64,000 nucleotides of DNA, taken from assembly GCA_951406725.2 (NCBI GenBank), contig OX597815.1, forward strand, positions 46,252,001 to 46,316,000, read 5' to 3'. Numbering within the stretch: the first letter of the stretch is position 1; the number at the start of each line of letters is the position of its first letter. The notes below the pieces were generated by a model. That model was not told the DNA's origin. It made no database searches and worked only from the letters and a program-made list of their open reading frames with translations. The translations under genes were made by a program, and so were the position numbers. Source of the stretch: Octopus vulgaris (taxonomy: Eukaryota). Below, piece after piece: positions 33,032 through 35,617 of the stretch.

Positions 33032-35132
33032 AGTTAACGAACCTGGCATGGGTGGGGCCCTGATCAACTTGGATCAATCGAAAGCCTTTGATAGGGTAGA
33101 CCATCGATACTTGGGGGCAGTCCTGAGAGCGGCTGGTTTCGGTCCCGTTTTCCGCGGATGGATAGCTGCCTTGTACAGAGGCATCCGTTCGGTAATTCGC
33201 GTAAATGGACATCTATCGAGACCTTTCAACATTGCACGTTCGGTCCGTCAGGGATGCCCCCTCTCTGCGCTTCTATACGTATTGACTCTTGAGCCACTAC
33301 TGCGGAAGCTGGCGACTCTAAGGGGCATCCCGCGAGAATTGGGATGCGGGACGAGCGTGTCTGCATACGCGGACGACGTCACCGTCATAGTGTCTAGCCA
33401 CGAGCACATCGAGCTGGTCGGCGAGACACTGAAAAACTACGAAGCGGTGACAGGAGCGAAAATCAACCGGGAAAAGTCAGTGGGCTTGCGACTAGGCACC
33501 TGGAGAAGCAAGCCCATGTCGTCCACCAGCGCCTCCGTCGTGGGACGCTGGACCGACGGCCCGGTTGAGTTGCTCGGGGTCTGGTTTGGTCCGGACCTCC
33601 AAGTGGAGAAGAACTGGAACGAGATAACGAGTAGGGTGGTCACTCTCGCCCGGCAATGGGCCGAGAGGAAACTGTCCCTAAAAGGTCGAGCGGAGGTGGC
33701 GAACACGTACATCGCGTCCGTCATCTACTACCGCCTGACCGTCGTACCTTGTCCCGACCCTACCATCACCAAACTACAACGCATCCTCTTTCGCTTCTTG
33801 TGGAAAGGATGCGTCCCGATGGTCAGGCGATCCATTTGCTGTCAACACCCGTTAAAAGGAGGGCTGGGCATGCCGTGGTTGATGATGCGCAGACACGCGC
33901 TGAGACTGCGGCATCTCTGGCTCTATGTAGACGACGGTGAACAGGTGTGGTCGCCGTTTGTGAGGCACGCTTTCCCGCAGCTCGTCTCCATGACCGAACT
34001 GCAGTCGTGGATCAAAAAGAGGCCGAGGAAGGGCGAATGGCACCGCGAGTGTCGCGTTGCTCTCAAGCAACTCTGCCGTCCTGGGTCGACCTTAAGTGAC
34101 TTCAACACAACCAAAGCATTCTATAGGGGTTTAGTGGAGGGGAGGTACGACGACGAGCTCGGGGCGAACCTGGACGTCGACGAGGAGTACCTGACCCGCC
34201 TGTTCAGGACGACTTTCGGGCCAGGGCCCATGGACAACTTCCAGAGATCCCTGGCCTGGCAGTGCTACCGAGAAGCGCTACCCGTTCGAGATAAGCTCTA
34301 CAGACACGGCTCGAGAAACACGGGGCCGACCTGCCCGAGATGCGGTCAGAGCGACGAAACCGTTCTGCACGCACTCGTTCAGTGTCCAACAATTTCCGAC
34401 CTGTGGGCTTATGTCGAACAACTGCTGTCACGTGTGGGACGAGTCGGTTTATCAGCTGAGTCTATCGTCAATATTGTCACGCCTCCTTCCTTCAAACGGG
34501 AAGGAAGAGCTATTTTCATCATCCTTGTGGCTATGGCGAAAGAATGTATCTGGTGGACGCGTCTGAAAGGATTGGAGACAAACACTTTCCTCTCTGGTCA
34601 ATCTCTCATCAACTTCTTCAAGTACCACTTGAAAAGGAAAGTGAGAGTAGAGAGGCAAGTTTTGTCTAGCGAATGTTTTAAAAAAAGATGGGTGAATGTA
34701 GCAAGAATGGCACGTATGAATGACGAAGCCACCTTGAGCATAGTCCTATGAACCCAGAAATCGAAAACAGAGAGTTGCTTATTTGCAAAAAAAAAAAAAA
34801 AGAAATATAAAATGTGACTTCATTGACCGAGGTTACCGTGGTCTTTTCCGTAGGCTTTTCTTTCCACGGGTAAACCTCACCTGTCCTCCCCTTTACACTT
34901 CATATTGACATTCCTGTGATAACGATCCCTATTGATCAATTTTTTTTTCCTCTCCCCCTTTTTTTTAACCCCCCTTTTTTTTGTCCTCTTTCTCTCCTTT
35001 TACGATCCCTTTTGATCGAAACTCCCCCTTCCTTTTTTTTTTTTTTTTTTTTTTTTTAAACCTTCAAAAGAAAAGCTCTACCTTGTAATTTGTTCTATCT
35101 GTGTGCAGCCCTGTGTGGCTAATAAAGAAACA
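33032..35132 (+). mobile_element. 5'-truncated Tx1-clade (L1-like) non-LTR retrotransposon
   Basis: 11-bp TSD tatctatctgt at 33021-33031 and 35133-35143; intact RT ORF; pyrimidine-rich 3' UTR ending ...ggctAATAAAgaaaca. GC/CpG-rich relative to the flanks, consistent with a young copy. Confidence 0.9.
33048..34751 (+). CDS. ORF2 C-terminal part: reverse transcriptase + C-terminal zinc finger (endonuclease lost by 5' truncation)
   Basis: 567 aa with no stop. RT motifs LDQSKAFDRV, SVRQGCPLS, AYADDV, AKINREKS; WAERKLSLKGR and GGLG (L1/Tx1-typical); CPRCGQSDETVLHALVQC zinc finger. Confidence 0.92.
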   Translation: MGGALINLDQSKAFDRVDHRYLGAVLRAAGFGPVFRGWIAALYRGIRSVIRVNGHLSRPFNIARSVRQGCPLSALLYVLTLEPLLRKLATLRGIPRELGCGTSVSAYADDVTVIVSSHEHIELVGETLKNYEAVTGAKINREKSVGLRLGTWRSKPMSSTSASVVGRWTDGPVELLGVWFGPDLQVEKNWNEITSRVVTLARQWAERKLSLKGRAEVANTYIASVIYYRLTVVPCPDPTITKLQRILFRFLWKGCVPMVRRSICCQHPLKGGLGMPWLMMRRHALRLRHLWLYVDDGEQVWSPFVRHAFPQLVSMTELQSWIKKRPRKGEWHRECRVALKQLCRPGSTLSDFNTTKAFYRGLVEGRYDDELGANLDVDEEYLTRLFRTTFGPGPMDNFQRSLAWQCYREALPVRDKLYRHGSRNTGPTCPRCGQSDETVLHALVQCPTISDLWAYVEQLLSRVGRVGLSAESIVNIVTPPSFKREGRAIFIILVAMAKECIWWTRLKGLETNTFLSGQSLINFFKYHLKRKVRVERQVLSSECFKKRWVNVARMARMNDEATLSIVL

Positions 35133-35617
35133 TATCTATCTGTGTATGCGTGTGTCTGAGTTTGCCCACCTCCAACCGCTTGACAACTGGACGTCTCCAT
35201 TAACAAAAAACCGATAGAATAAGTATCGGGTTTTAAAAAATTCTCCAAAAGCAGTATGGCCACAGCCTAATGAGCCTAATGACTGAAACAAGTAAAAGAT
35301 AAAATATAAAAGATATCATCATCATTCATCATTGTTCGACCGTGGTCGAGACAATGGAATTTACCATGCTACGCCAGACTTCATACGCCAGATATACATA
35401 TATATAGGCTGGCCAGATTGGAGCAATCTCAAGAATAATCAGCCGAAATTGCGAGGATAATCTGATGCTTGACTGAGGATAGAGGGCTTCGAATGACCCG
35501 TCCTTGTTTCTTTGTAGCATCTATCTGGATGTTTTGTTGTCCCTTTTTGTATCACCTAGCTGTCCGGATGTTTTGCGTTTTTGTCCCATTTTGTATTATA
35601 TATATATATATATATAT

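Follow-up and report, generated by a model that had tools for sequence, protein, structure and literature searches.

A Tx1-like LINE in an (ATCT)n microsatellite

The window analysed here, a 64,000-nt stretch of the Octopus vulgaris genome, holds at 33030..35133 (+) a LINE of a family that we termed Tx-A. The copy is 5′-truncated and retains the C-terminal half of the reverse transcriptase (RT), a zf-RVT domain, and the 3′ UTR. It sits in an (ATCT)n target microsatellite (32964..33029, +) that itself lies inside a SINE of a different family (left arm about 32830-32965, right arm about 35150-35300; identity assigned by eye) and that resumes past 35133. The LINE ends in a conserved 3′ tail without poly(A) (35082..35133, +), in which a stem (AGCC/GGCT, 35107-35120) is followed by AATAAAGAAAC; this tail is the invariant, true 3′ terminus of the family.

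Full-length Tx-A copies encode an ORF1 and an ORF2 with APE endonuclease, RT, and a C-terminal zinc motif, and the closest solved structure to Tx-A ORF2 is human L1 ORF2p (E 3e-53; R2, 4.5e-20)—features that place the family in the L1 superfamily. Among named proteins, the one closest to the LINE protein comes from Argonauta hians; a protein-atlas search gave generic names only. Over the last 172 aa, 150/150 scored Tx-A matches were 100% identical, many of them in 1149-aa frames: Tx-A is a young, very abundant family with intact copies. Its insertions are strongly patterned, (ATCT)n following 64/68 Tx-A ends (loci L001-L065, which overlap, such that a few elements are counted twice), and several copies were seen stacked in one such tract (L019, L020, L006, L017). 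An older Tx-A-like fragment elsewhere in the window (1222-1534, −; 82% aa identity at the ORF2 C-terminus) lacks the 3′ end.

The LINE terminus recurs as the tail of an abundant SINE

A 3′ tail of ~45 nt is common to the Tx-A end (35082-35133) and an abundant octopus SINE. Within the window, blastn matched 35089-35135 to 52177-52131 with 81% identity over 47 nt (E 1e-7). The preliminary description of this DNA had proposed such sharing between a Tx1-like LINE and a SINE; both strings that it quoted were found in place, and the tail was present in all four further SINE copies that it listed (~18575-18619, ~39915-39965, 60301-60350, and ~62340-62388). The local alignment of the LINE end with the SINE tail scored 57, a value reached by 0/5000 dinucleotide shuffles (mean 14.6, sd 2.8, max 30), and the concern that the likeness might be a chance product of pyrimidine-rich sequence was thus not borne out. 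With the last 14 nt cut off, the score fell to 29, which was equalled by 5/5000 shuffles. We confirm that the similarity of the Tx-A and SINE tails is real. Two details of the quoted SINE string need correction. It is present at 52131-52182, but represents a best-looking copy rather than the commonest ending (AAAGAAATA in 45/57 SINE insertion blocks vs AAAGAAACA in 4/57), and its final TA belongs to the target duplication (52122-52133), not to the SINE tail.

No better tail was found among the other LINE types, each represented by one copy: over their terminal 150 nt, an RTE-, a CR1-, and a Dong-like element (labelled by motif; RT confirmed) scored 16, 20, and 16 against the SINE tail, and an R2-like region whose end was not located scored 19. 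An initial score of 92 for the Dong-like element stemmed from a SINE copy nested downstream and became 16-20 on rescoring. Conversely, all 84 tail-profile matches with E<0.01 in the window and in 750 kb of genomic samples were SINE, Tx-type, or an ORF1-only passenger described below (84/84; 77 sorted by rule, 7 by eye).

Copies, abundance, and insertion sites of the SINE

The SINE is about 235 bp long. A full-length copy lies at 52134..52366 (−), with its stem at 52146-52158 and a 12-bp duplication (52122-52133 / 52372-52383); a second (60301..60531, −; duplication 60289-60300 / 60536-60547) is inserted antisense within another SINE body; and a third (62156..62388, +) is flanked by a duplication starting GGTA (62140-62150 / 62389-62399). 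A 5′-truncated copy at 18425..18619 (+) has a 13-bp duplication starting AGAAA (18412-18424 / 18620-18632). The copy at 39737..39966 (+) directly abuts the remaining part of a second SINE body at a GGTATTTCG site, and this downstream body carries an older tail type. Duplications of the window SINEs measured 11-14 bp, overlapping the 12-18 bp previously given and reaching slightly below it.

Motifs resembling an A-box (62168-62182) and a B-box (62230-62242) were recognized by eye, against consensus sequences, in the third copy. Neither ARAGORN nor Rfam gave a tRNA match (for Rfam, among the 150 of 358 matches listed), and Rfam searches of four loci gave microsatellite-driven miRNA matches among those listed. 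In a census of 75 fixed-step 10-kb samples (750 kb), we counted 68 tail-bearing units, which extrapolates to ~250,000 copies in the 2.8-Gb genome; a 29-nt tail pattern had 88,180 exact genome matches (control, 0). The element is thus short, dispersed, of high copy number, and flanked by target duplications. We take it to be plausibly one of the octopus OK, OR1, or OR2 SINEs, likened here by description rather than by sequence comparison.

Two other tails, more diverged and ending in (TTA)n, are also found on this SINE body. Identity to one reference copy was about 81% for other-tail SINEs vs 88%, although ages by tail type are rough because rule-based sorting left 48/137 bodies unsorted. Older-tail SINEs lie in the window at 3465-3600, 4377-4600, and 51808-52110. 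Both older tails (L071, L094, L211, and others) contain a hairpin with a CTTGT loop, as in the shared tail, and a GGC/GCC stem, and they end in (TTA)n, like the LINE families D and F introduced below; these could be additional tails derived from the clade to which D and F belong.

None of the 57 SINE insertion blocks was followed by (ATCT)n, and 13/57 continued into the remaining part of a different SINE body. Duplications were found in 25/44 remaining scorable blocks (10-21 bp, median 16; mismatched controls, 2.5%), several of them in (TA)n, where they may be due to chance. GGTA followed 25/49 blocks ending in ATA or ACA and, in most scorable cases, was present 5′ of the insert too. The GGT junction was seen in 19/37 SINEs with a U closing the stem vs 0/16 with a C (p 1.6e-4; self-insertions excluded, loci L322-343 left out). 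The junction thus goes with the SINE variant; a different partner for each variant is an alternative account of this link. Finally, SINEs form head-to-tail arrays of 2-6 units that restart at body position 17 or 50 (L221, L080, L200, L226), in two cases inside a single target duplication.

The tail closes a clade of related families

By sampling and follow-up searches—a sample of the LINEs rather than a full library—we found four more families with this ending, termed Tx-D to Tx-G. At least five related L1/Tx1-like families (A, D, E, F, and G) and the ORF1-only passenger have this tail at their 3′ end, and in all tail-sharing families a short stem precedes a terminal AATAAA-(N)-GAA. The five families and the Argonauta protein form one clade (support 100/99) with E and G as sisters; the tree contains no named Tx1 reference, and 'Tx1' is used here as a label. 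ORF2 identity to Tx-A ranges from 43 to 61% among clade members, and outside the tail the remainder of the A and G UTRs is barely alignable (score 28). A published annotation of O. vulgaris counts 13 active L1-Tx1 families (PMC13282606).

Target-sequence preference varies within the clade: Tx-A inserts in (ATCT)n, D and F end in or beside an (ATT/ATC)n microsatellite, and the targets of Tx-E and Tx-G are dispersed. Microsatellite-specific Tx1 elements have precedents in Kibi and Koshi, whose targets are (TC)n and (TTC)n (PMC4494074), unlike the (ATCT)n of Tx-A and the (ATT/ATC)n of D and F. Several Tx-E copies were found within or next to histone genes (L229:3100-4200; L267, L272, L280; judged by eye), one directly 3′ of an H4-like gene and others just 5′ of H3- or H2B-like starts, and a preference for histone clusters is possible.

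The passenger, family C, was overlooked in the preliminary description, even though its 3′ end lies in the window (14353..14492, −) within an 18-bp duplication (14335-14352 / 14493-14510). It consists of an ORF1-like frame with a CCHC knuckle, 36% identical to Tx-G ORF1 and 31% to Tx-A ORF1, followed by the tail without any ORF2. In its ORF1-only build it resembles HAL1, the non-autonomous L1 derivatives (PMC5786205), and differs from them by a Tx-G-type hairpin tail. Family C has a stem of the SINE type and was considered as the partner of the SINE, but was rejected for want of an ORF2. Before the shared tail, its 3′ UTR contains another, longer inverted repeat (L102-L131), and the window copy is inserted into a decayed Ty3/gypsy-like pol region (14510-17000, +; by eye).

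A small stem with three pair states

As the preliminary description had it, both tails can fold into small hairpins, but thermodynamic support from single sequences is weak: single tails fold no better than shuffles (z −0.5 to −1.9). The second stem pair is G-C in 26/26 young Tx-A copies, 11/15 copies of F, and 9/11 of D, and C-G in 25/25 copies of Tx-G, 45/50 SINEs, and 24/25 passengers; Tx-E is divided (T-A in 13, C-G in 11, mixed in 1). A 4-bp stem therefore appears to be conserved with compensatory changes across three pair states, in a register set by hand: MAFFT places the stems out of register, and the compensation between A and G requires a hand-fitted, one-base shift of the loop. Each stem-pair change counts as one inherited event. 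A longer lower stem that would bury AATAAA is predicted only.

Tx-G as the sampled family nearest to the SINE tail

The preliminary description had attributed SINE mobilization to this or a sister Tx1 family. Our data speak for the sister and against the window's own family. Tx-G (about 5.15 kb, found outside the window) and the SINE have an identical stem and end, whereas Tx-A and the SINE differ in stem pair, loop length, and terminal base. Within the terminal 25 nt, identity to SINE copies was 0.90-0.91 for Tx-G, matching that between SINEs (0.90), and 0.78-0.79 for Tx-A. Tx-G was the nearest family for 56/61 scored SINE copies, 53 of them nearest to its subfamily G1; before Tx-G was split into subfamilies, 16/61 had been nearest to Tx-A. 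The window SINE at 52131 aligned to one Tx-G copy (L351) with 43 matches, 3 gaps, and 0 mismatches, and it scored 63-71 against G1, 57 against Tx-A, and 55 against intact G2.

The insertions of Tx-G are mostly dispersed, with 0/30 ends in (ATCT)n, 2/30 in a SINE head (one of them the query), and duplications in 12/20 fetched copies (11-18 bp, except one 25-bp match), lengths that agree with those found for the SINE. GGTA, so common at SINE junctions, followed only 1/30 Tx-G ends, and the targets of the SINE and Tx-G are thus not simply coincident. Intact 1132-aa ORF2 frames were present in 4/20 fetched Tx-G copies, all of them G2; none was found among the fetched copies of G1, the best-matching subfamily, which looks dead. 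Pairwise divergence was 9.7% for the SINE, about 6% for G1, and 2.8% for G2 ORF2, such that ages overlap only loosely, and the LINE copies, having been chosen by score, look younger than their true age.

Internally deleted Tx-G derivatives, in which the ORF2 start is joined to the ORF2 end, were also observed (L344-L346; L337:1025-1512), two of them inside a SINE head and one with a 16-bp duplication. The SINE-head site is likewise the end point of further shared-tail elements (L322, L323, L331, L341); L323, the one that was translated, is ORF1-only and forms a stack with L324, 2 kb away.

Candidate mechanism and competing explanations

Building on what was directly observed—terminal homology, its conservation across families, compensatory stem changes, duplications, and the contrast between Tx-A and SINE targets—we propose that the SINE is probably copied by the RT of Tx-G or of a closely related family, via recognition of the predicted hairpin. 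In this scenario, an older tRNA-like SINE body would have exchanged its tail for that of Tx-G; ORF2p would bind the tail stem-loop and prime reverse transcription at the target just beyond AAAGAAAT. The SINE RNA would end a few bases beyond AAAGAAAUA, in GGUA(U) or AGAAA, and these extra 3′ bases, transcribed when tandem source copies are read through, would anneal to the target at its nick. Such pairing would explain both the duplications starting with GGT and head-to-tail self-insertion, and tandem sources would also yield arrays of 2-6 units in one duplication. Going further, the second stem pair might serve as a family-specific passenger barcode, an L1 lineage might have kept an ancestral 'stringent' mode in octopods, and the SINE might steer its own landing, including into itself, by 3′ RNA bases independent of enzyme preference; we offer this extension tentatively and regard it as possible but rather doubtful.

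Among the competing explanations, we consider it unlikely that the tail comes from the Tx clade while copying falls to one or more unsampled members, for instance a family that targets SINE heads or GGTA. The scarcity of GGTA junctions in Tx-G, the apparently dead state of G1, and the further passenger types ending at the SINE-head site would fit such an enzyme. Yet two genome-wide patterns for the SINE-exact tail behind non-SINE sequence (213 and 484 matches) revealed no recurring LINE upstream among the 100 matches listed for each, and the link between junction and SINE variant can be explained by RNA-guided pairing. In the same survey, a SINE body lay upstream in 28/30 loci examined, L232 and L256 being bare tails, and, among those examined, loci in which the sequence upstream of a SINE-exact tail seemed not to be SINE turned out to be SINE mutants.

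That Tx-A itself mobilizes the SINE with relaxed target choice is improbable, despite its abundance, its intact copies, the closer resemblance of tails from older Tx-A subfamilies to the SINE, and the observation that crocodilian SINEU families likewise follow the target of their Tx1 partner only in part (PMC4494074). Both target ((ATCT)n at 64/68 Tx-A ends vs 0/57 SINE blocks) and stem argue against it as the direct partner, and a genome-wide search for a LINE combining Tx-A upstream sequence with the SINE stem returned one match, a Tx-A variant. The partner is probably a family other than this one.

It is very improbable that Tx-G acquired its end from the SINE: some Tx-G-derived copies do lie within SINE heads (L344, L345), but 5′ of the stem, the UTRs of Tx-G and its sister Tx-E are colinear, the tail is present across the whole clade, and the SINE body is also found with two other, more diverged tails. 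Equally hard to credit is a chance or convergent likeness of pyrimidine tracts with a poly(A) signal, or donation by a non-Tx1 LINE, for although AATAAA is a generic signal and the three other LINE types were each checked by one copy, the shuffles, the low RTE-, CR1-, and Dong-like scores, and the exclusive make-up of the tail-profile matches all speak against it, and nothing in the samples speaks in its favour.

Relation to known SINE/LINE pairs

Enzymes of the L1 type are textbook examples of 'relaxed' copiers that accept any poly(A) RNA. In stringent SINE/LINE pairs such as eel UnaSINE/UnaL2, by comparison, the partners share a 3′ end of 35-61 bp with 72-95% identity (PMC3747384, PMC11481361). 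The octopus case resembles these in its shared 3′ end—the SINE end being homologous to the true 3′ terminus of a LINE—and in tail exchange on one SINE body, and by analogy the pair may work like the classic stringent ones. It differs in that the candidate partner belongs to the L1 superfamily, unlike the CR1, CR1-Zenon, L2, and Nimb partners of bivalve SINEs (PMC11481361, PMC4758252); PMC11481361 does not mention 'Tx1'.

Tails of the L1 clade were reported for only three SINEs among 58 pairs, all from plants or algae: maize ZmSINE2/3 with LINE1-1_ZM and one green-algal SINE with L1-1_CR (PMC3472496). As in the octopus, the last 45-50 nt are conserved, SINE-shared, and contain a hairpin with compensatory changes; the octopus pair differs in its animal host, the lack of poly(A), a SINE on the scale of a quarter million copies, and the ORF1-only passenger. 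For the crocodilian SINEU, mobilization by Tx1-Mar was deduced from shared target and age, and no LINE with the same 3′ end as SINEU-1 was found, according to PMC4494074. The two systems are alike in inferred Tx1 mobilization, tandem SINE stacking, and distinct Tx1 families per SINE, the octopus SINE being set apart by its shared LINE tail and putatively tRNA-like head. OK, OR1, and OR2 (Ohshima and Okada 1994; OR2 being listed as a CORE SINE) are abundant tRNA-derived octopus SINEs for which the available text of the citing papers names no partner LINE (PMC4758252, PMC5804259). We encountered no tail-sharing Tx1/SINE pair in the literature searched, though Repbase, SINEBase, or supplementary pair tables may list one.

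If the proposed partnership is true, the Tx clade would be a rare L1 relative that selects its RNA passengers by a predicted hairpin rather than by poly(A), and the likely engine would be named for one of the largest repeat families of the octopus genome. An animal case in which intact enzymes and natural tail variants occur together with a SINE and an ORF1-only passenger would make it possible to test directly whether recognition of RNA by its structure is an ancestral trait of the L1 superfamily, and what such recognition reads.
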